From the IMG/VR virus record IMGVR_UViG_3300033146_007472: a stretch of DNA of 24,117 bases; one strand, 5' to 3'. Below are positions 2,798-24,117 of this stretch, piece by piece. Origin of the DNA: a virus. Its lineage: Duplodnaviria > Heunggongvirae > Uroviricota > Caudoviricetes. How positions within the stretch are numbered: position 1 is the first letter of the stretch; each line of letters begins with the position of its first letter. The notes under the pieces were generated by a model, which saw only the letters and a program-made list of their open reading frames with translations, searched no databases and was not told the DNA's origin. Both the position numbers and the translations under genes were made by a program.

Positions 2798-5338
2798 ATG
2801 ATTTCTTCTAAAAAAGTTCGAGCTAATTTTACGATTGACGAGAGTTCTTTCGAAACTTACTTAAACTACGAAAAATACGAAGACGGTCTTTTTTGGATGA
2901 ATGATCGTGTTTTCTTTATGCTCGAAATCGTCGGCGGAATTTATTACTATTCTAGTGAAGAAGATATTCTTGATTATTATACGAGACTGAAGCTAGTGCT
3001 CAAGTCGATTCCACCGGAAGCGAATGCTTCAATTCAATCATTTTTTATGCCGTATCGTGATATTGACTTTGATCCGCCGCCATCGAAGTCAACGAACTCC
3101 GCGGTTAACGGCTTCTATGACGAAACGGTTAAAAAAATTAAGAACGCGCCGAAAACCGGGTACTATGATGATAAATCACTGCTCCGTGATATGCGAAATT
3201 TTTTAATCGTTATTTTTCCGCTAAAAGGATCCAATATTCTCGGGAAGATCGAAGATGTCTTGGATCAACGTGGATCGCGATTAGGTGGCTCCGCAACTGA
3301 GACTTATTTATTATGGAAGAAGTCATTTCTAACATCATTGCGCTCGATGAACTGCGATGTTACTGAAGTTGACGGTGATGATTTTCTCTATATGATGTTT
3401 ACATTGCTGAATCAAGATTTTGATCCGCTAAAACTAAAGTACAATACCTCGATACCGTTAAAACGACAGCTCTTGTATAATATCATAACGACTGATCATC
3501 ACGAAATTGCGTATTCTAAAAAGCGCTGGGCTATGGGCTTTCTCGAGAATCTTGAGCGTGTCAAGCTCGGCTTCCTGGTTGAGCTAATGGCGCTAAAGAG
3601 ACCGTTTTTCTTTTCCGTTACTATGCATTCACTTAGCACGCTTAAATTACAAGCTGTTCTTCAAGGTCGTAAACGTGCGACCATGAATAAACAAAAAATA
3701 GCTAATATCGATTCTGCACTTCAAGTTTCCGGTACTAATGACGCTTTTGAAGCCGAAGCGTATATGGGTATCTTACTCGATGATTATAAAGAAGTCGGCG
3801 AAGTCCATTCCGAATTAACTGGTTTCTTCTCAAAATATCGTTGGGACTTTCAATTTGAAACGTCCATCGCGGCGGACATGCTTCGCTCTGCACTTCCAGC
3901 GCATTTCAATACTAAAGCTGCTCGACGCTTAATGATCTTCGATGACCATGCTATTAGTTTCTTGAACTTTCGTAATTATCGCCGAAAATTTTCAGACCAA
4001 GGAATTATGTTCGCCGGCGAAGATCTTTCACCGAAGATGGTAGACATCTTTGACTCGACGGCATACGGCACTATGATCTCCGGCGGTTCTGGTTCCGGTA
4101 AAACAATGTTCTCACAGTATATGGCGATGTCCGAACTTGCACAAGGCCGCAAAGTTATCATTATTGACCCGGTTGGAAACTTTGAAGGCCTCTGCGAAGT
4201 TGTTGACGGTCAGTACTACCGGATAGGCTTATCGGACCGATGCCGTGGTATGGATTGTTTTCCGAACCTAACTTATGCGGAACTAATACAGAATAAAGAA
4301 GTCAGTTCCATGACACTTGCATTACTCGAAAAACTTATTACTCTCGGCTCAAAATCCATGGATATGTCGCCACGAGCTAAATCTGTACTTCAAAAAGCTT
4401 TCTATTTGATGTACAAGAATACTCCGGATCCGGATCTAACAATTTTTGTCGAGGTTCTAGAGAGCTTACATGCCGAGGCTGTAGACGCTGGCACAGACTC
4501 TATTGCCGGCGAGTTTGCCGCAGCTCTTGAAATGTTCTTACCTGACGGAGTGTATGGTAACCTTATTGCTAGTGATTCTCTTGATCTTGATGCGCAATTT
4601 ATTGTCTTCGACATTGGCGAACTACGTGATCGCGCCGAGCTTGCACAACTTGCTATTTATGGCTTAATGACGAAGATTTCATCACTAGTTATGTACCTTG
4701 CAACTCAGAACCAAAAGTGTATCTTGTTTATTGATGAAGCTCATTATCTTATTGCTGATCCAGGCTCCGTCTCTTTTATTAAGAATGGTGTTCGTGTTTG
4801 GCGGACTTACGGCGGGTCTCTTGTTTTAATTAGTCAACAACTTACTGACCTTTTGGAGAACCGTGAAGTTGGCGAAGGCATCTTTAAAACGCTTTACAAC
4901 TTCTTCATTCTTGCGCAGTCTCCGTCTTCGATTTATGATGCTCAAGAATTTATCGGCTATAATGACACCGAAGCAAACGCTATGACGGATCTCCGAACTG
5001 TCGCCGGCGAATATAGCTTTATGTCATATTATACACGTGGAATGGCTTCAGATGGCAATCCAGCTTTTGGTAGGTTTTATTTATCAATACCACGATATTT
5101 TTATTGGATGATGACTAGCCATCCGGACGAGAAAAGCCAGCGATTGACACGAAAGCAGCATTATATCGATAAGGGATTTACGCCGCTGGATGCCTTGCAC
5201 CATGCACTTCAAGACTTAGTTGAAGCTGAAAAAACTAAACAAAAACAGCCTGAGCCTGTAAAGTTAATCGGTATAAACCCAGATGCTCTTGCGTCGGCCG
5301 AGTCTACGGCTACTAAAATACCTGAAGACTCAGCTTAA
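2798..5338 (+). CDS. traC: Conjugative type IV secretion ATPase, TraC/VirB4 family
   Basis: 846 aa. Walker A GGSGSGKT followed by 'RKVIIIDP', then 'FIVFDIGEL', Walker B 'LFIDEAH' and 'RTYGGSLVLISQ'. Size and layout are typical of F-type TraC. GGAG upstream. Confidence 0.88.
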   Translation: MISSKKVRANFTIDESSFETYLNYEKYEDGLFWMNDRVFFMLEIVGGIYYYSSEEDILDYYTRLKLVLKSIPPEANASIQSFFMPYRDIDFDPPPSKSTNSAVNGFYDETVKKIKNAPKTGYYDDKSLLRDMRNFLIVIFPLKGSNILGKIEDVLDQRGSRLGGSATETYLLWKKSFLTSLRSMNCDVTEVDGDDFLYMMFTLLNQDFDPLKLKYNTSIPLKRQLLYNIITTDHHEIAYSKKRWAMGFLENLERVKLGFLVELMALKRPFFFSVTMHSLSTLKLQAVLQGRKRATMNKQKIANIDSALQVSGTNDAFEAEAYMGILLDDYKEVGEVHSELTGFFSKYRWDFQFETSIAADMLRSALPAHFNTKAARRLMIFDDHAISFLNFRNYRRKFSDQGIMFAGEDLSPKMVDIFDSTAYGTMISGGSGSGKTMFSQYMAMSELAQGRKVIIIDPVGNFEGLCEVVDGQYYRIGLSDRCRGMDCFPNLTYAELIQNKEVSSMTLALLEKLITLGSKSMDMSPRAKSVLQKAFYLMYKNTPDPDLTIFVEVLESLHAEAVDAGTDSIAGEFAAALEMFLPDGVYGNLIASDSLDLDAQFIVFDIGELRDRAELAQLAIYGLMTKISSLVMYLATQNQKCILFIDEAHYLIADPGSVSFIKNGVRVWRTYGGSLVLISQQLTDLLENREVGEGIFKTLYNFFILAQSPSSIYDAQEFIGYNDTEANAMTDLRTVAGEYSFMSYYTRGMASDGNPAFGRFYLSIPRYFYWMMTSHPDEKSQRLTRKQHYIDKGFTPLDALHHALQDLVEAEKTKQKQPEPVKLIGINPDALASAESTATKIPEDSA

Positions 5339-6328: not shown

Positions 6329-7465
6329 ATGCTGAATATGTTTGAGTTGTTGGACTCACGATATGACCTAGCGTTATCCGATAATGAATTCACAATGCTA
6401 ATTTCAAAGAGCCGTCTTGCTAACGTTAATTCGAATCTTGAGCGTTTCGGTTTCTTAGCCGCAAGTATTATTACGGCTGATGATATGAAAGCCGAATCAC
6501 TCCATGCAATTCTGGCTGGTCAGCCATCTCTACTTTCACTGTCCGGTCAGAATGCTCTACATGATCTTCTTCCGCTTCTTGAAGATTCACAAGCTTTAAT
6601 TAGCGAATTTCTCTGCTGGCAATATGTCTCTAATTTTACGCCGCTTGATTTTACTCCACCGGAGAACTGGCGTGATGTTTTATACTTGTTCGAAGACAAT
6701 GAAACCAAGCGTCTTTTAGAAGCCGGCTATGCCGATTCACTCTTTCAGCTTCGGCAAGCTGTCCCGGATGACACGGTTGAAGCGCTTATTGCTTACGAAA
6801 CCGTTCTAGCGCTACGCTTTCGTCCGCGGATTCCATCAAAGAACCCGGCCTTTTATTCACACCCGCGAGTGTTAATTTCGCCTGGTGATACGGTTCTAGA
6901 CTGTGGTGCTTGTGCGAATGCATACGGCGGTCAGTTCGTTACTGATTTCGCAACTTTATGCCAGCCAGCCGGCAAGGTAATTGCATTTGAGCCAATGCAT
7001 GAGGTTTTTCAGGCACTTGAAGCGGATGTTGCAGATATTTTCAATGTTGTATTAGTTAATGCGGCTGTCTGGAGCCGACCGACAACTCTTACTTTTGCTG
7101 CAGACGGTATTCAAAGCCGAAAATTGCTTGAATCTGAAGAACAGCCTGCTTCAGCTTCTGATCTGTCTTTGATGGCCAGCCATGTAAGTGTCCGTGCTGA
7201 ACGCATCGACGACCTGGATGCCGAGCAGCCGATTAATTTTATCAAAATGGACGTTGAAGGCGCCGAGTATGACGCTTTACTTGGCGCTCAGTCTATCATA
7301 CAGCGTGATAAACCTAAATTATCCATCTGCCTTTATCATTCACCGGCTGATTTTGTTCGTATTCCGAAGCTTATTCATGAGTTCTGTCCAGAGTACAAAA
7401 TGTGGATTGAGCTTAATGAAGGACATTCTTGGGCCGGCATGAAACTCTTTGCAAGTGTTGAGTAA
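6329..7465 (+). CDS. FkbM-family SAM-dependent methyltransferase
   Basis: Motifs 'VLDCGA', 'VIAFEP', 'NAAVW', 'INFIKMDVEGAEYDALLGA' and 'KPKLSICLYH'. Confidence 0.9.
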   Translation: MLNMFELLDSRYDLALSDNEFTMLISKSRLANVNSNLERFGFLAASIITADDMKAESLHAILAGQPSLLSLSGQNALHDLLPLLEDSQALISEFLCWQYVSNFTPLDFTPPENWRDVLYLFEDNETKRLLEAGYADSLFQLRQAVPDDTVEALIAYETVLALRFRPRIPSKNPAFYSHPRVLISPGDTVLDCGACANAYGGQFVTDFATLCQPAGKVIAFEPMHEVFQALEADVADIFNVVLVNAAVWSRPTTLTFAADGIQSRKLLESEEQPASASDLSLMASHVSVRAERIDDLDAEQPINFIKMDVEGAEYDALLGAQSIIQRDKPKLSICLYHSPADFVRIPKLIHEFCPEYKMWIELNEGHSWAGMKLFASVE

Positions 7466-8566: not shown

Positions 8567-10138
8567 ATGCCTGATTATTTTAATGATTTTGCTTCTTTAG
8601 ATCTTTCAAGTGCTCGTGCGCGTATTCAAGATGACTCTGAAGCCGAGAAAATACCTCGTACTGTGTTTTCAAAAGTTTTTCAGCTTGCTCCAGTTACACC
8701 TGGAATTCAACTCTTAGTCGGTGCACCTTCTTCTGGGATTGCTGAGTTCTTATCACAGCTCCCAGATGCTATTCGTTTACGTGGCGGTCAATTCTCATCC
8801 GCTGAGACGTATAATAGCGTTCTCGGCGCGTCAGTCGGTTATACTGGTTCTGATAAAGCAACGAAATTCATCAAAGATCTTGCAGCTAAAAAAAGCAAAA
8901 TTGTTATCATCGACGGTATTGAACTTGGCTCTGAAAGTACGCTCAGCGATTTTGTGTCAATGGTACGTGAAGGTTTTATTACTGACAAAACTGGAATTCA
9001 CGGTGACATTGATGCTTCGGGTTTAACCTTCTATTTCACGCTCCGCGAAGAACTTGCTGCAGATTCTGAGCTAACTTCGTCTATGATCCGTGAGCGGTTG
9101 CTAAAGCTCCGGAAACCTGACGGCTCGGCTGTTGTTCCGCCTGAGTTAACTGACACCGCTACAATTTCACATTTCTATTCCATCTTTCAGCGTCCAGATA
9201 CTATTCTTTCCAAAGTTTCGCAGGCTTTCTCATCACCATCACCAACTCGACTAAAAGAAGCAACTGAGACATTCTTTTTAACTAACCGTGAAATTTTTGA
9301 TATCGCGAGACAGAGCGTAGTTGTTCATCGCGACGAAGATCGCAAAAAACTGCTAGTAGACGGTGCTGTGTATAAAGAGAGCCGTACTTTAGCCAAGTCG
9401 GATTTTTATGACTTTAATGACTCATTAGCAACATACTTCGGCCAAGAAGACGCAATTTCTGTTTTTCAAGACGCACTAGCTTTCAAAGTCCAGAGTTCTA
9501 TTTCGCGGCCTACTTCACTCTTTTGTGTTGGTCCTCCTGGAATAGGAAAAACCGAGATAGCGAAGCGTCTCGGCAAAGCGATCGGTGGTTTTGTTGAAAT
9601 CCAATGCAATGTTATTAGCTCACCTGAGACCTTATTCGGTTCCGCGCGGTCTCCTGGTTTGTTGACACGCGGCTTGACTAAAGGTGAACCAGCGGTTATA
9701 TTATTTGACGAAGCCGAGAAAATGGACACTCCGACCGTTTTAAGTCTCTTACAACTCATCGATGCTGGGTCATTATATGACGCGTATCTAAAAGAAACTT
9801 GGCCGTTAAGCGAAATCCTTATAGTCTTTACCTCTAATGCTATTAAAGATCCAGATATTACGCCGGACGAAGCGCGTAGTGTCTTAAAGCAACGTTTTCC
9901 AGAGGAATATGTAGACCGTCTAGACTTTATTGTACCATTCCGTTTTTTTTCTCAAGAGCATAAAGAGCGCATCGCGCAAGATATGGCAAAAACTCTTGAA
10001 ATCTCATTGTCACCGGCTGAACTCGAAGATGTTACTTCGCCGAATTCAATCCGACAAATTAAACTTGAGCTTCAAGGGATTATGTCTAGAAAAGCTTCAG
10101 CCGAATTAAAACGCACGAGGCCATCACGTATTCGTTAA
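8567..10138 (+). CDS. Clp-type AAA+ ATPase with two D2-like modules; the first is degenerate
   Basis: C-terminal module: GPPGIGKT, ILFDEAEK, VFTSNA, 'YVDRLDFIVPF'. N-terminal module: 'LLVGAPSSGIAEF', 'LGASVGYTG', 'IIDGIE', 'GFITDKTG'. GGAGAG RBS. Confidence 0.8.
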   Translation: MPDYFNDFASLDLSSARARIQDDSEAEKIPRTVFSKVFQLAPVTPGIQLLVGAPSSGIAEFLSQLPDAIRLRGGQFSSAETYNSVLGASVGYTGSDKATKFIKDLAAKKSKIVIIDGIELGSESTLSDFVSMVREGFITDKTGIHGDIDASGLTFYFTLREELAADSELTSSMIRERLLKLRKPDGSAVVPPELTDTATISHFYSIFQRPDTILSKVSQAFSSPSPTRLKEATETFFLTNREIFDIARQSVVVHRDEDRKKLLVDGAVYKESRTLAKSDFYDFNDSLATYFGQEDAISVFQDALAFKVQSSISRPTSLFCVGPPGIGKTEIAKRLGKAIGGFVEIQCNVISSPETLFGSARSPGLLTRGLTKGEPAVILFDEAEKMDTPTVLSLLQLIDAGSLYDAYLKETWPLSEILIVFTSNAIKDPDITPDEARSVLKQRFPEEYVDRLDFIVPFRFFSQEHKERIAQDMAKTLEISLSPAELEDVTSPNSIRQIKLELQGIMSRKASAELKRTRPSRIR

Positions 10139-11643: not shown

Positions 11644-13809
11644 ATGATATCAAATGAAATTTCTCAAATCTTACACTTAGCTGTTCACGAGGCTAAAAGC
11701 CGTCAGCATTCGACAGTAAGTGCTGAGCACATTCTTTTTAGTTGTTTACAAACTACTAACGGAAAACAGATCTTAACTTCATTCGGCGCTGATACTACTC
11801 ACTTACTTCACGAGCTTGAGGTATACTTCCTGACTCTCGATTCTTCGGACTCGAATCTTCTACAGCTAAGCGACGATGATCATCTTAGCGCGCCAGTCTT
11901 CCGAGAACTTTTTCAGTTTTTGATGATACGCACGGCGCAAGTACGATCAACAACTGCGTCTTTAATGGATCTTATTCTAGCACTCTCGGCGACGCAAAAA
12001 ACACGGGCTGCGGCTTTATTGCACAAAAATTGTACATTAACCGAAGCTGATTTAAACATTGACTCAACTGCTGAAGATATCTCATTACCGTATGGACTGC
12101 TTAGGTATTCATCCGTAGATTTTGCAGTTTCTTCACCAGTCTACGGCCGAACTGCGGAAATTACACAGATCTTTAAAACCATGTGTTGCAAATTTACTAA
12201 CAATACTTTAATTCTCGGAGAGACTTCCATAGGTAAAACTAGCTTGTTACACGAGACTCTATATCGCTTGCAGCGAAAAGCTCCTACAGCATTGCTAAGG
12301 CATATTCCAATCTTCTGGCTTGATATTCCACAACTTCTGGCTGGTACTGTTAACCGCGGGCAAATTGAAGATTATCTACTTAATATCTCAGCTTTTTTAA
12401 CTTCACAACCTCTAGCTGTACTGGCCGCGGATGACATACACGGTATTGCGCCTGCGGCTGTTCCTGGCCGTGATTATGGTTTTTCAGCGTTAGCAAATCT
12501 ACTTCCGGTTCTACGAACTCCGAGAATTATTACGCTTTTTACTGCTAAGACTTCTGAATACCGACAAAGACTTTCTTCAAATTTGTCGATCGTTCATGCG
12601 TTCCGACCTTTAATTTTAGAGCCAATTTCAGACGAAGATACCTTGACGACACTTGCGATACATCGCAAAACTTTAGAGGAACATTTTCATACTAAAATTT
12701 CTTCTGAAGTTTTGCAGCAGTGTATTATGACTTCTAAGTCGGTTTTTCCGACTTTACCGCTGCCTACTGCGGCTGTCATGCTCCTTGATTATTCGTTGTC
12801 CACGGCAAATGGAGCTAAAGAACTGACACATGAAACTTTGCAATTGACTGCGAAAGATCTTGAGCAATCTTCGGAAGCTACAACACAACTTTTTTCGAAA
12901 TCTAAAGTTCATGCATCCGCTGACTTTTTGCACTCTAAAGTCTTTGGGCAACCTGAGGCTATCCAAGCGCTCTGTGATGTAGTATATTCTTCTTTTGCTG
13001 GATTATCCGCACCTGGACGGCCTATAGGCAGCTTCTTATTTACTGGGCCGTCTGGTGTTGGAAAAACTGAGCTTTGCATACAATTGGCTGAAGCTATCGA
13101 CTTTAATCTGATCCGCTTCGATATGAGTGAGTATTCGGAGAAGCATTCTATTTCGAAGTTGATTGGCGCACCTCCTGGCTATGTTGGCTATGAACAAGGC
13201 GGACAGTTAGTTGAAAAAATCAAAAAATTTCCGAAATCGGTCATTCTAATTGATGAAATTGAAAAATCACATCCGGAAATTCAGAATTCATTCTTACAAA
13301 TCTTAGATCATGCAACTTTAACAGATTCGTCTGGATGTAGTGTTGATTTCTCGAATAGCATAATTATCTTTACAAGTAACTTTGGCTCTGCGAACCGTTT
13401 TTACCGCCCAGCAACTTTTGTGCCTAGTGCTGAGACTGATATCTCTAACAAAACTTTAGCGAAGTTTTTTACGCCGGAATTTCAGAATCGACTTACCAGC
13501 ATAATAAACTTCAATCTCTTAGTTTCGGAAGATGTTCTACAGATTATAGTTAAAGAACTTGAAGTATATTCAGTACGCTTGGCTACGCGCGGTCTCAAAC
13601 TCTCGTACGATGACTCAGTACTAACTTGGATCTTGAATACTTCATTTAAACCGGAGTTTGGCGCACGAGATATCCGAAGGTTCATTGAAGACTCTGTAGT
13701 TTCAAAAATTGCGACACACTTAGTTTTTGACACGAATGCTTCACTAGCTTCCTCATTACATCTTTTTTATACTGCGAATGAACTGCGCCTTGAGTTTTTG
13801 ACGCGTTAA
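11644..13809 (+). CDS. clpA: ClpA-like AAA+ chaperone (Clp N-domain, degenerate D1, intact D2)
   Basis: N-domain 'LAVHEAKSRQHSTVSAEHIL'. D1 'GETSIGKT'. D2 'GPSGVGKT', 'RFDMSEYSEKHSISKLIGAPPGYVGYEQGG', 'LIDEIEK', 'PEFQNRL', 'FGAR'. No ClpB-type long coiled-coil M domain. Confidence 0.85.
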   Translation: MISNEISQILHLAVHEAKSRQHSTVSAEHILFSCLQTTNGKQILTSFGADTTHLLHELEVYFLTLDSSDSNLLQLSDDDHLSAPVFRELFQFLMIRTAQVRSTTASLMDLILALSATQKTRAAALLHKNCTLTEADLNIDSTAEDISLPYGLLRYSSVDFAVSSPVYGRTAEITQIFKTMCCKFTNNTLILGETSIGKTSLLHETLYRLQRKAPTALLRHIPIFWLDIPQLLAGTVNRGQIEDYLLNISAFLTSQPLAVLAADDIHGIAPAAVPGRDYGFSALANLLPVLRTPRIITLFTAKTSEYRQRLSSNLSIVHAFRPLILEPISDEDTLTTLAIHRKTLEEHFHTKISSEVLQQCIMTSKSVFPTLPLPTAAVMLLDYSLSTANGAKELTHETLQLTAKDLEQSSEATTQLFSKSKVHASADFLHSKVFGQPEAIQALCDVVYSSFAGLSAPGRPIGSFLFTGPSGVGKTELCIQLAEAIDFNLIRFDMSEYSEKHSISKLIGAPPGYVGYEQGGQLVEKIKKFPKSVILIDEIEKSHPEIQNSFLQILDHATLTDSSGCSVDFSNSIIIFTSNFGSANRFYRPATFVPSAETDISNKTLAKFFTPEFQNRLTSIINFNLLVSEDVLQIIVKELEVYSVRLATRGLKLSYDDSVLTWILNTSFKPEFGARDIRRFIEDSVVSKIATHLVFDTNASLASSLHLFYTANELRLEFLTR

Positions 13810-21465: not shown

Positions 21466-21780
21466 TTATTTCGGCGGTGTCGGAGGAAGCACTACCATAT
21501 CTGGCTTGTCATCTTCATCTTCTTCTTTGTCTTGCATGACTGCTGTCATATATGTACCATTTGATAGCTTAATAGACAACTTAACACGATCATTTTTAGT
21601 CGTACCTTTCCAGGCTGCTCCAACTTCATCATTACCTTGAAAGAGACGATAATCTGGGTGAGCGTCGCCATTCTTCCGTTCATTCTTTTTACCGGTATAC
21701 GCGACACCTTGAATCTTAATATCTAATTCTAGATTGTCATCAACTTCCCGAAAAAAGACTGTTCCATGATCTTCGGCCAT
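21466..21780 (-). CDS. DUF736-like protein, paralog 2
   Basis: 'HPDYRLFQGNDEVGAAW' signature and AAGGAG RBS. Clearly aligns with 13923..14381. Confidence 0.7.
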   Translation of the reverse strand: MAEDHGTVFFREVDDNLELDIKIQGVAYTGKKNERKNGDAHPDYRLFQGNDEVGAAWKGTTKNDRVKLSIKLSNGTYMTAVMQDKEEDEDDKPDMVVLPPTPPK

Positions 21781-21809: not shown

Positions 21810-22571
21810 CTAGTTCTTTTTGCTTGCTTTGTTTGCTTTCTCTAGCTTTTTTGTTTCACGGATTTGTTTCCGCTCGAGTTTTCGTTTTTCGTTTTCGACA
21901 CGTTTTGCTTCTTGACGAAGCTGTGTTGCCATTTTTCGTTCTTGTTTTCTTTTTGCAACATCAGCATGATGCTTAGCTAATTTTTCTTCTTTCGTAATGC
22001 GACGGATTAATTCTAATGTTGAGATATTAAATGCTAATCCAGAGTAGTATAGGTATAAGCCGATAGAATCTAGCCAATGATTATCAGTTGTTACAAATTT
22101 TCGGCCTAATGACTTTGACACGAGTGTTTTAAGCGCTAATGCTACGGTCTTTTTGTCACCAGCTAATGCGCGCTTCCAAACTGATGATGTAACGGTTTCG
22201 GCAGTAATTCCGGCATGCTGTAAGTATCCGCGAATAAATGAAATTAATTCTTTCATCTTCGAGATTGTCGCGCCATTCGCTGCAAGTCCGATACGACTCT
22301 TTTCGTTTCCACCTGGAAAACTACTAAAATACACGAAGCTTTCTAGAATAACGACTTTACAATTCCACGTAGTATACAGGTCTAGAATACGCTCGGCTAG
22401 TTCTATTTCCGACAAGGTTTTTCCATCATACACACCATACACCAAAACTTCGCCAGCTCTACAAACTGAATAGCCTAGTGACTTGCGTAATCCTGGGTCG
22501 ATCGCGAGTATAGTATCTGTACTAACAATATCACGACTTTTTTCAAAAATTTGCATATTGAGTAACGTCAC
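21810..22571 (-). CDS. ruvC: RuvC-like Holliday-junction resolvase with a roughly 60-aa Lys/Arg/Glu-rich C-terminal extension (ATG start at 22556 plausible)
   Basis: 'ILAIDPG', 'VILES', 'WKRALAG' and 'DNHWLDSIG' carry the RNase-H-fold acidic residues. Confidence 0.8.
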   Translation of the reverse strand: MTLLNMQIFEKSRDIVSTDTILAIDPGLRKSLGYSVCRAGEVLVYGVYDGKTLSEIELAERILDLYTTWNCKVVILESFVYFSSFPGGNEKSRIGLAANGATISKMKELISFIRGYLQHAGITAETVTSSVWKRALAGDKKTVALALKTLVSKSLGRKFVTTDNHWLDSIGLYLYYSGLAFNISTLELIRRITKEEKLAKHHADVAKRKQERKMATQLRQEAKRVENEKRKLERKQIRETKKLEKANKASKKN

Positions 22572-22666
22572 TTTCTAGTATATAATAGAGGTTAGAATTT
22601 TCAGCACTGTTTAGCTTTTAAGTATCCTTAGCCATAAGCTATTGATACTATTCCCGGAGAAAATTT

Positions 22667-23497
22667 ATGCACTCATTTCAGCCTACGACTTTCAATACTT
22701 TTGCAGAGGCATATAAACATCTTGCTGAGACACTTCTTGATTCACCGACGGCTGAGAGTCGAAATGCTAAGACACGCGAAATCTGCGATGCTCAATTTCG
22801 AATACTACAACCGAATACTTCATTAGCTCTCGTCGGGTCTAGACTACGTTACATGTTTGCCGAAGCATTATGGTATGCAGCCGGAGATTACACGACGCCT
22901 TGGATCACTAACTTTTCGTCTTTTTGGCCACGTATCGCGGATGCAGATGGGTTAATCTCCTCAAATTACGGGCAGCGTATTTTTCGTGCAACTAAAACTT
23001 TTAATACTGCATTCAAAATGCTGTGCGCTGATCCCGGATCACGCCAAGCTATTTGTCATATAAATCAGTCTGCAGATATTTTTGCTACGAATAAAGATAT
23101 TCCGTGCACGATGTACCTTCAATTTTTCATTCGTAAGTCACAACTACATCTCAGCGTACATATGCGTAGCAATGACATTTGGCGTGGCTTAACTTATGAT
23201 GCGCCGAACTTCTTTCTCTTTCAGCAAACCATGCTATATTTTTTACAGTCCGCCGGATATGACATTACTCTAGGCTCATATACACATCATGCTGGAAGTT
23301 TTCATGTCTATGAAACTGAAGTCAAGCAGTTACAGAAGTATTGTTTAGCTCCGCTCACAGACATTCCATTGCAGTTAAAAGCACCTCTTATTAATCTTGA
23401 CGGATCACCAACGACGAAAGCCCTTAAATTTTATAATTCAACGTCTGAAGGTGCCTTCGACGTCTCCAAATTCACGAAACATTTTTTAACTATATAG
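22667..23497 (+). CDS. Thymidylate-synthase-fold nucleotide-modifying enzyme, probably dCMP hydroxymethylase or methylase type
   Basis: 'AEALWY' (E66), 'SSNYGQRI', 'DPGSRQAI', 'DIPCT' (C147), 'MRSNDIWRGLTYD' (D178) and 'GSFHVY'. The pattern matches T4 gp42 better than ThyA. Confidence 0.8.
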   Translation: MHSFQPTTFNTFAEAYKHLAETLLDSPTAESRNAKTREICDAQFRILQPNTSLALVGSRLRYMFAEALWYAAGDYTTPWITNFSSFWPRIADADGLISSNYGQRIFRATKTFNTAFKMLCADPGSRQAICHINQSADIFATNKDIPCTMYLQFFIRKSQLHLSVHMRSNDIWRGLTYDAPNFFLFQQTMLYFLQSAGYDITLGSYTHHAGSFHVYETEVKQLQKYCLAPLTDIPLQLKAPLINLDGSPTTKALKFYNSTSEGAFDVSKFTKHFLTI

Positions 23498-23520: not shown

Positions 23521-24117
23521 ATGCCTAAGTTATTATACTCTACTGTACGAATTACTGCTTTTCCAGATATGACGGATGATGCACTGAAAGCCTATTTCAT
23601 ACTATTAAAACTGTTGCCATTTGAGCATGCTGAAAAAGCTGAGTACTTAGGCTGCTTGCAAGAACTAACATTACGGAAAATTGACTCCACGAATATTCTA
23701 GTCCGTGATTTACCGATTACATTAAAAAACCCGACTGAATTGCAATCTAGGCTTTTTGAATTCAAAAAACGATATTTTGCTGCTTTTCACGGTGACAAGC
23801 TTCTAGAAATCGAAAAAGACAAGCAGCAGAAACTAGACCTTGCCGCTGAAAAACTACGCTTAGCTGATGAAGCGAAGCGTTTGAAAGCCGAAGAGCGCGC
23901 AAAAGTTAAAGCAGAAAAAGTGCGCATCGCTGACGAGAAACGTAAGGCTCGTGCCGAAGAGCGCGCAAAAGTTAAAGCAGAAAAAGTGCGCATTGCTGAC
24001 GAGAAACGTAAGCTTAAAGCTAAAGCTTCTGAAGATAAACAGCCATCACTAGACTTTTCGTCTGAGACCTCAACGACTACAGCATCTTCAAAATCTTCAA
24101 AACAATCATCTCTTTAG
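23521..24117 (+). CDS. Hypothetical protein with a charged K/E/A/R repeat region and a Ser/Thr-rich tail
   Basis: Complete ORF 23 nt downstream of the TS-fold gene; contains a 22-aa tandem repeat. Confidence 0.8.
   Translation: MPKLLYSTVRITAFPDMTDDALKAYFILLKLLPFEHAEKAEYLGCLQELTLRKIDSTNILVRDLPITLKNPTELQSRLFEFKKRYFAAFHGDKLLEIEKDKQQKLDLAAEKLRLADEAKRLKAEERAKVKAEKVRIADEKRKARAEERAKVKAEKVRIADEKRKLKAKASEDKQPSLDFSSETSTTTASSKSSKQSSL
23887..24012 (+). repeat. In-frame tandem duplication with a 66-bp period (AEERAKVKAEKVRIADEKRK twice)
   Basis: 23887-23946 and 23953-24012 are identical apart from one synonymous change (ATC/ATT). Confidence 0.95.

Follow-up and report, generated by a model that had tools for sequence, protein, structure and literature searches.

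The locus and the thymidylate-synthase-fold enzyme

The window analysed here is the whole 24,117-nucleotide stretch of the virus record IMGVR_UViG_3300033146_007472, which belongs to a 144-kb metagenomic contig. It carries a gene for a thymidylate synthase (TS)-fold enzyme, P0001, which is probably a deoxycytidine monophosphate (dCMP) 5-hydroxymethylase of the type of phage T4 gp42, and which heads a conserved block of replication and DNA-transfer genes in a family of large elements with type IV secretion system (T4SS) genes. The TS gene and the putative signals in front of it are as follows.

22667..23497, + strand: TS-fold enzyme P0001, predicted dCMP 5-hydroxymethylase; ATG start, TAG stop, 276 amino acids (aa)
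22558-22586, + strand: putative promoter-like site TTGAGT-17-TATAAT, consensus match only
22656-22659, + strand: GGAG, putative ribosome-binding site 8 nt before the TS ATG, consensus match only

Both putative signals are inside the 95-bp divergent intergenic region 5' of the TS gene. P0001 matched the thymidylate-synthase fold family PF00303 of Pfam (E 2.4e-16) and PHROG 160, 'thymidylate synthase' (E 2.6e-33), and its AlphaFold2 model, based on 88 homologues, had a mean pLDDT of 95.9 and a pTM of 0.93. When this model was compared with the PDB by Foldseek, seven chains of MilA, a cytidine monophosphate (CMP) 5-hydroxymethylase, came out on top (TM 0.74-0.77, 27-29% identity), followed by structures of ThyA and of the T4 dCMP hydroxymethylase (dCH), with a probability of 1.00 to all three enzymes. 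MilA was also the best of the three in phmmer (2e-23, compared with 4e-12 for the best ThyA and 3e-10 for T4 dCH) and in a search with a profile built from the nine members of the clade described below (3e-38, compared with 2e-23 for T4 dCH and 3e-20 for the best ThyA), and in the profile search both cytosine hydroxymethylases stood above every ThyA. All seven NCBIfam ThyA equivalogs scored P0001 at 53 bits or less against cut-offs of 108-576, the best of them reaching 53 bits against a cut-off of 327. Scores so far below the cut-offs indicate that P0001 is not a housekeeping-type ThyA.

Active-site residues, phylogeny and predicted specificity

The first-pass annotation of this gene had proposed that P0001 carries the cytosine-specific Asp in place of the Asn of ThyA, taking as comparators ThyA, with Asn177 and PCH, and T4 gp42, with Asp179 and MCT. 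Both reference motifs were correct when checked on the fetched E. coli ThyA and gp42 sequences, and the numbering of Asp178 in the open reading frame (ORF) at 22667-23497 was right. P0001 contains the strings DIPCTMYLQF and MRSNDIWRGLTYD, and HMMER alignments to E. coli ThyA (yqRSCDVFLGLPFN, laPCH) and T4 gp42 (mRSNDVVFGFRND, fMCT) placed Asp178 opposite ThyA Asn177 and T4 Asp179, and Cys147 opposite ThyA Cys146 and T4 Cys148. The catalytic Cys and Glu are intact, as had been stated: Glu66 aligns with T4 Glu60, and both Cys147 and Glu66 are invariant in the 88 homologues.

For the specificity analysis, the reference genes T4 gp42, E. coli ThyA, RB69 td, RB69 gp48, Xp12, Xoo-sp2, SPO1 gp29 and PhiW-14 were aligned with P0001 and about 250 homologues, and residue rules were drawn from four papers (PMC5175136, PMC6400193, PMC13326640, PMC8670742). 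In the MilA structure, Ala176/Lys133' account for ribose preference and Ser/Arg for deoxyribose, Asp186 reads cytosine, and a double change of Ala176/Lys133' switched MilA to dCMP (PMC5175136). In the ternary complex of T4 dCH, Asp145, located three residues before Cys148, activates water together with Ser94 and Tyr96 to give the hydroxymethyl group; the D145N mutant is inactive, and Leu143 and Trp83 occupy the places of T4 Asp145 and Val85 in ThyA (PMC6400193). The 2026 paper on 5-hydroxycytosine links N177D to dCMP, L143D/E to a non-methyl product and D169N to 5-hydroxy-dCMP synthases (PMC13326640), and in MetaGPA the positions 147 and 177 separate cytosine-modified from unmodified viral contigs (PMC8670742).

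Of 22 positions in the active site and cofactor site, 18 have the same residue in P0001 as in T4 dCH (EC 2.1.2.8; PDB 1b49, 1b5d, 6a9b), and the shared positions include all those shown to be important by mutagenesis or structure (PMC6400193, PMC5175136, PMC13326640). Catalysis and cytosine recognition are represented by Glu66 (T4 Glu60), Cys147 (Cys148), Thr148 (Thr149) and Asp178 (Asp179), water activation by Ser99-Asn100-Tyr101 (Ser94-Asn95-Tyr96) and Asp144 (Asp145), solvent access close to the cofactor by Trp87 (Trp82) and Ile90 (Val85), and nucleotide binding by Arg126 (Arg123), Arg167-Ser168-Asn169-Asp170 (Arg168 to Asp171), His213 (His216) and Tyr215 (Tyr218). T4 Ser144 and Arg220 are replaced by Lys143 and Thr217; T4 Lys28 was aligned opposite Ser31, with the adjoining Arg32 matching the conserved Arg of the family and the alignment ambiguous by one residue. 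The overall identity of the two enzymes is only about 24%, and P0001 has a C-terminal extension of about 50 aa with a clade-specific PL.L..PLI..DG.PT motif.

Read against the published rules, the presence of Asp144, Ser99 and Tyr101 favours a hydroxymethyl rather than a methyl product, and Ser168 with Arg126 predicts a preference for deoxyribose rather than ribose. Thr148 and Asp178 match both MetaGPA positions tied to cytosine-modified viral contigs (PMC8670742), and uracil hydroxymethylases retain Asn at 177. All the computational tests (Asp178, Ser168, Arg126, Thr148) thus agreed with the cytosine-deoxynucleotide substrate suggested at first pass, and, judged by these residues, the gp42-type pattern is the only enzyme-class pattern that fits P0001.

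To place the enzyme among its relatives, FastTree trees with SH-like supports were built from 260 sequences and then from a 69-sequence set that also includes MilA-like proteins, TS genes of plasmid cassettes and the JGI relative described below; the sampling is biased to P0001 hits and the deep nodes are only moderately supported. The TS genes of the elements formed a clade with a support of 1.0 in both trees. Among characterised enzymes, T4 gp42 joined this clade first, again in both trees, followed by MilA-like enzymes, plasmid-cassette enzymes and dUMP hydroxymethylases, and then by RB69 gp48, with the Xp12 methylase and ThyA outside the hydroxymethylase group (split support 0.99). The family is very large, with 6146 representatives at E <= 1e-3 and 3178 at E <= 1e-10, and the signature D143/T147/S167/D169/D177/R126 (E. 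coli numbering) was shared by 237 of 254 sampled homologues, so the enzyme itself is an ordinary member of it. The nine close-clade members are 39-51% identical to P0001, and all nine keep E66, S99, Y101, R126, D144, C147, T148, R167, S168, D170, D178, H213 and Y215. This invariance of the catalytic residues suggests that the gene still encodes a functional enzyme and is not in decay, and judging from the alignments Asp178 is neither a chance observation nor a sequencing error.

Other TS-fold activities were weighed against the same residues. A dCMP methyltransferase making 5-methyl-dCMP, as in Xp12 (MT664984, L017), has the same fold, and its Asp at the Asn177 position indicates a dCMP substrate; according to PMC8670742, where Liu and Santi 1992 and Hardy and Nalivaika 1992 are cited, Asp at Asn177 alone turns a TS into a dCMP methylase, and P0001 retains Asp170, which in TS orients the cofactor for hydride transfer. 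However, Xp12 and Xoo-sp2 (KX241618, L016) read N-V-P-C-P where P0001 reads D-I-P-C-T, that is, Asn143 and Pro147 instead of Asp and Thr, a rule that rests on one phage lineage. In addition, Asp144 and Ser99 of P0001 reproduce the water-activating pair of T4, the bulky Trp83 of ThyA is Ile90 in P0001 and Val85 in T4 (PMC6400193), and Xp12 branches outside the hydroxymethylase group. The Asn143 of Xp12 and Xoo-sp2 is not hydrophobic, so the published rule that a hydrophobic residue at 143 means a methyl product is just approximate. We regard a methylase as very unlikely; of the two products that the first-pass annotation had offered, 5-hydroxymethyl-dCMP (hm-dCMP) is favoured and 5-methyl-dCMP is not.

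MilA of Streptomyces rimofaciens (PDB 5jnh, 5b6d, 5jp9) is the best solved match by sequence, profile and fold, and it shares with P0001 the Asp at 143 and 177 and the Thr after the catalytic Cys, which raises the possibility of a MilA/BcmA-like hydroxymethylase of CMP or another cytosine nucleotide feeding a nucleoside-antibiotic or thiamine-antagonist pathway. P0001 differs from MilA precisely where specificity is set, having Ser168 and Arg126 for Ala176 and Lys133', the double change that switched MilA to dCMP (PMC5175136). The MilA-like proteins P0098 (E 3e-84 to MilA) and P0090 have Ala/Lys at 167/126 and lie on another branch of the tree, and no MilB-like N-glycosidase, other biosynthetic gene or mildiomycin-type neighbourhood was found nearby in the window or the relatives. 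Such an activity is therefore highly improbable.

Finally, RB69 gp48 and DLP3 gp80, the flavin-dependent 5-hydroxy-dCMP synthases (PMC13326640), share the TS fold, Thr147 and Asp177 with P0001, but they have Asn169 and Glu143 where P0001 has Asp170 and Asp144; since Asp170 is retained and the diagnostic D169N is absent, P0001 is not expected to be an enzyme of this kind. An ordinary thymidylate synthase fits no better. E. coli ThyA (EC 2.1.1.45), about 20% identical to P0001, has the same fold, catalytic Cys, Glu58, Tyr94, Arg166, Asp169, His207 and Tyr209, but in P0001 its Asn177 is replaced by Asp, Leu143 by Asp, His147 by Thr, Trp83 by Ile and Cys168 by Asn, and the NCBIfam ThyA scores are low, as noted above. 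We give these two activities together the slimmest chance of all.

These results support that P0001 is likely to have the activity of a T4 gp42-type dCMP 5-hydroxymethylase, a homodimeric, folate-dependent enzyme. By analogy with T4 dCH, Cys147 would attack C6 of dCMP, Asp178 would recognise the cytosine face and Glu66 would open methylene-tetrahydrofolate. After one-carbon transfer, a water molecule held by Asp144, Ser99 and Tyr101 would add to the exocyclic methylene, and the product would be hm-dCMP rather than a methylated nucleotide.

Gene order in the window and in a collinear relative

The other features of the window and the copies of the gene following TS are given below.

23521..24117, + strand: downstream TS partner, cut by the window end; it follows TS in five loci (the window, L001, L004, L023 and L006)
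L001:10858-11550, L004:4731-5375, L023:9125-9787, L006:5040-5546: copies of the TS partner, always directly after the TS gene
21810..22571, - strand: RuvC-like Holliday-junction resolvase, divergent from TS; PHROG 159 (E 9e-7), PHROG 1770 (E 4e-5)
21466..21780, - strand: DUF736 protein of plasmid/integrative and conjugative element (ICE)-backbone type, downstream of the RuvC-like gene; PF05284 (E 3.4e-7)
2798..5338, + strand: TraC/VirB4-family type IV secretion ATPase; PF19044 (E 2.8e-20), AAA_10 (E 5e-10)
6329-7465, + strand: FkbM-family methyltransferase, TIGR01444 (E 9e-23); conserved beside TraC in the collinear relative
8567-10138 and 11644-13809, + strand: two Clp-like AAA+ proteins; PADLOC models PDC-M37B and DolB (E 1e-24 to 3e-39)

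The window belongs to a family of elements seen as metagenomic contigs of about 95-144 kb, in which the TS gene heads a conserved block consisting of TS, a partner of 170-230 aa, a protein of unknown function of 430-540 aa, a DnaB-type helicase and a T4SS coupling protein. The closest homologues of P0001 are encoded on such contigs, in a matching arrangement. The order from TS to DnaB is kept in L001, L004 and L023, and in the relative L006 a PolA fragment, GyrA and DnaB lie directly beside TS and its partner. Diverging from this block is a second conserved order, of an ankyrin gene, genes for small membrane proteins, DUF736 and the RuvC-like gene: DUF736 is syntenic in L001, L002, L004 and L022, and the position of the RuvC-like gene is conserved in L001, L004 and L022, its L001 orthologue matching PHROG 1770 at E 1.4e-11.

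The partner starts 23 nt after the TS stop and is therefore probably in the same operon. In its AlphaFold2 model, a small N-terminal domain of some 90 aa, made of helices, leads into one long, charged helix or coiled coil and then into a disordered tail, which contains a QPSLFD-like motif. The protein matched no known family, Pfam and PHROG assigned it no function, and the model does not suggest one either. A role as a tether between the enzyme and the replisome would be speculative. For the 538-aa neighbour, a structure search gave no TM of 0.4 or above, from a model with a pLDDT of 0.44. Neither the window nor any of four relatives showed an extra Walker-A protein close to the TS gene.

The remaining window genes include those for a second DUF736 protein, an S41 peptidase, an SNase-like nuclease, an ankyrin protein and a run of small membrane proteins; no virion, tRNA or housekeeping genes were seen in the 24 kb. 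Pfam and PHROG searches of selected window ORFs gave no convincing virion match, and the sole 'head and packaging' PHROG matches were weak ones, to the P-loop of TraC and to the coiled-coil partner. A tblastn search with TraC returned at least 5000 plasmid records, of which 4541 were typed conjugative and had annotated traC, and 13 'phage' records. The TraC-like ATPase also matched PADLOC mad8 (E 1e-10); this and the candidate-defence matches of the Clp-like proteins may reflect generic AAA/P-loop similarity. One speculative connection of the FkbM-family gene with the TS gene, which lies 15 kb from it, would be O-methylation of a hydroxymethyl group. The use of an alternative genetic code was dismissed, since TGA ends three of 23 genes and the coding density is 86% under table 11.

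A TraC homologue at 50% identity led to the JGI contig Ga0502371_0000078 (95,662 bp), of which 70.6 kb was surveyed. This relative is collinear with the window from TraC to the TS partner at 29-60% amino-acid identity, lacking a few window genes (e.g. the ClpA-like gene) and carrying some extra ones. Its TS is a 282-aa open ORF (L022:2313-3158, - strand, which is the same as L023:8228-9073, + strand), 55% identical to P0001 and with all the catalytic residues. The source gene caller annotated just 119 aa of it, so that precomputed Pfam tables miss this TS and a domain census would undercount the TS family. No close relatives of the element were detected in scans of metagenome, GTDB (185,579 species genomes) and IMG/VR collections with P0001, clade, TraC and fusion-protein queries.

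Downstream of DnaB, the relative encodes a VirD4/TraG-type coupling protein, a TopoIA with DUF3945, a DHH (RecJ-like) protein, GyrA- and GyrB-like subunits and a 998-aa family-A DNA polymerase. Directly downstream of this polymerase is the following gene.

L037:12999-14339: kinase-dUTPase_2 fusion P0273, 446 aa

The P-loop kinase domain of P0273 matched AAA_28 (3.8e-13) and a PHROG 'thymidylate kinase' (6.8e-10), and its dUTPase_2/NTP-pyrophosphohydrolase domain was detected at 7.2e-9 (PHROG 173 at 1.5e-14). In pairwise BLASTP the C-terminal domain matched the T4 gp56 dCTPase (E 1e-7) and nothing else encoded by the T4 genome. This fusion adjoining the polymerase may merit attention in its own right. 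Further downstream lies a 151-aa dCMP/cytidine deaminase (PF00383, 3.8e-21). From their sequences, the PolA, the kinase-gp56-like fusion and the dCMP deaminase of the relative are a predicted T4-type accessory set, so that at least one member of the family appears to couple the hydroxymethylase to functional analogues of T4 gp56, gp1 and cd. Because PolA, GyrA and DnaB lie beside TS in relatives, gene order likewise indicates that the element family couples the hydroxymethylase to its own replisome.

Elsewhere in the relative (L032, L036, L038; contig 21-71 kb), we observed an HD/HD_5 protein, GGDEF, PilZ and prepilin-peptidase fragments, which are parts of c-di-GMP and type IV pilus systems, as well as a PhoH/PIN protein, several ankyrin-repeat proteins and an M15 peptidase.

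Possible role of the enzyme in the element

If P0001 acts as predicted, hm-dCMP would be phosphorylated and then used by the replication machinery of the element, which would place 5-hydroxymethylcytosine (hmC) in element DNA. Such DNA could blunt restriction, and possibly other sequence-reading defences, on entry to a new cell. We consider the incorporation of the product into the element's own DNA, which the first-pass annotation had also proposed and for which the support is indirect, an evenly balanced question, and lean slightly towards the whole explanation, in which a gp42-type enzyme provides hmC for the DNA of a T4SS-bearing element.

Several observations weigh against this explanation. 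T4 Arg124 is replaced by Gln127 in P0001 (the ThyA Arg127 position), a residue that the active SPO1 dUMP hydroxymethylase also has, and the residue rules themselves derive from few characterised enzymes. Genes for a dCTPase, a dNMP kinase and a DNA polymerase are missing from the 24-kb window, as are genes for sugar or other transferases that could modify hmC, and the accessory set of polymerase, kinase-dCTPase/dUTPase and deaminase was seen only in the relative with the 55%-identical TS. Within that set, the dUTPase_2 domain of P0273 could be that of a plain dUTPase, and the JGI name for the protein is nicotinamide riboside kinase. A resident plasmid that alters the nucleotide pool would change the DNA of its host as well, an unexplained cost; expression confined to transfer-competent cells, tolerance by the host, or an element that is not a long-term resident could each account for it. 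Lastly, plasmid TS genes with the same signature are also located in defence-like cassettes.

These cassettes raise the question of whether the same chemistry, from dCMP to hm-dCMP, serves defence, with a resident plasmid draining or poisoning the deoxycytidine pool against phage and leaving its own DNA unmarked. A system of TS, dNMP kinase and 5hmdU kinase has been validated experimentally as anti-phage (PMC13092281). TS genes with the identical D143/T147/S167/D169/D177 residues lie beside ImmA/IrrE on the conjugative Rhizobium plasmid pRCCGE532a (L033) and on the Pantoea plasmid pFC61912-B_D (L034), and those of Geobacillus pGeo12a (L035) beside an APH-like kinase, a NUDIX hydrolase and an AAA protein; two of the three plasmids are typed conjugative. 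These plasmid 'thymidylate synthase' cassettes are probably base-modification or defence modules mislabelled ThyA. They are small, consisting of TS, a hypothetical protein and ImmA/IrrE, or of two TS, the APH-like kinase, NUDIX and AAA, whereas P0001 and its clade members adjoin none of the defence-cassette partners (dNMP kinase, 5hmdU kinase, NMAD, ImmA/IrrE), and PADLOC gave no match for P0001 or its flanking genes. The cassette TS genes fall on a separate branch of the tree, and the TS of the elements is not a movable cassette but a fixed backbone gene by DnaB, PolA and the coupling protein across elements whose TS genes are 39-55% identical. A role in defence or pool manipulation is thus unlikely.

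Alternatively, the carrier may be a large phage with its virion genes in unseen sequence, in which the enzyme would act as gp42 does in T4. PolA, GyrA/B, DnaB, RuvC, the gp56-like NTPase, the dCMP deaminase and an RNA ligase make up an accessory set typical of large lytic phages, and the sequence seen comprises 24 kb of a 144-kb contig and 70 kb of the 95.6-kb relative, with many genes without known family. Against this, TraC/VirB4, the VirD4/TraG-type coupling protein, DUF736 and TopoIA-DUF3945 are hallmarks of plasmids and ICEs. No capsid, portal, terminase or tail family was found by precomputed Pfam over 70 kb of the relative, the selected window ORFs likewise gave no convincing virion match, and pattern scans of IMG/VR for relatives of the TS clade, TraC and the fusion protein came back empty. 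We consider a phage carrier improbable. The carrier differs from T4 in its genes for type IV secretion and in that neither virion genes nor a glucosyltransferase were seen in the sequence covered; as in T4, a gp56-like NTPase and a dCMP deaminase accompany the TS gene in the relative.

The hmC explanation in its fullest form, that a virion-less, T4SS-moved element replaces cytosine by hmC through a T4-style pathway (hydroxymethylase, gp56-like dCTPase-kinase, deaminase) and its own replisome (PolA, DnaB, GyrA/B), is more doubtful, and we put it forward tentatively. In the literature searched, pre-replicative cytosine replacement (hmC in T4, 5mC in Xp12, 5hoC in RB69) is described for viruses only, and a full-text search, which cannot prove absence, found no report of a dCMP hydroxymethylase on a conjugative plasmid or ICE. 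As an enzyme, P0001 adds one more example to the dCMP hydroxymethylases, a known and widespread kind, and the novelty lies in the setting. It is unusual that the gene is fixed in the backbone of deeply diverged, T4SS-bearing large elements, by replication and DNA-transfer genes, and that a relative has the rest of the T4 nucleotide toolkit. If the fullest form were true, this would be the first known case of a non-viral mobile element that relies on wholesale base substitution as armour against restriction in conjugation. DNA containing hmC would give conjugative DNA a new route to evade restriction, and one would have to ask how an element that stays in its host for long keeps from modifying or poisoning it. 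Enzymatic library preparation and methylation-aware sequencing could then systematically lose or mis-measure such elements.

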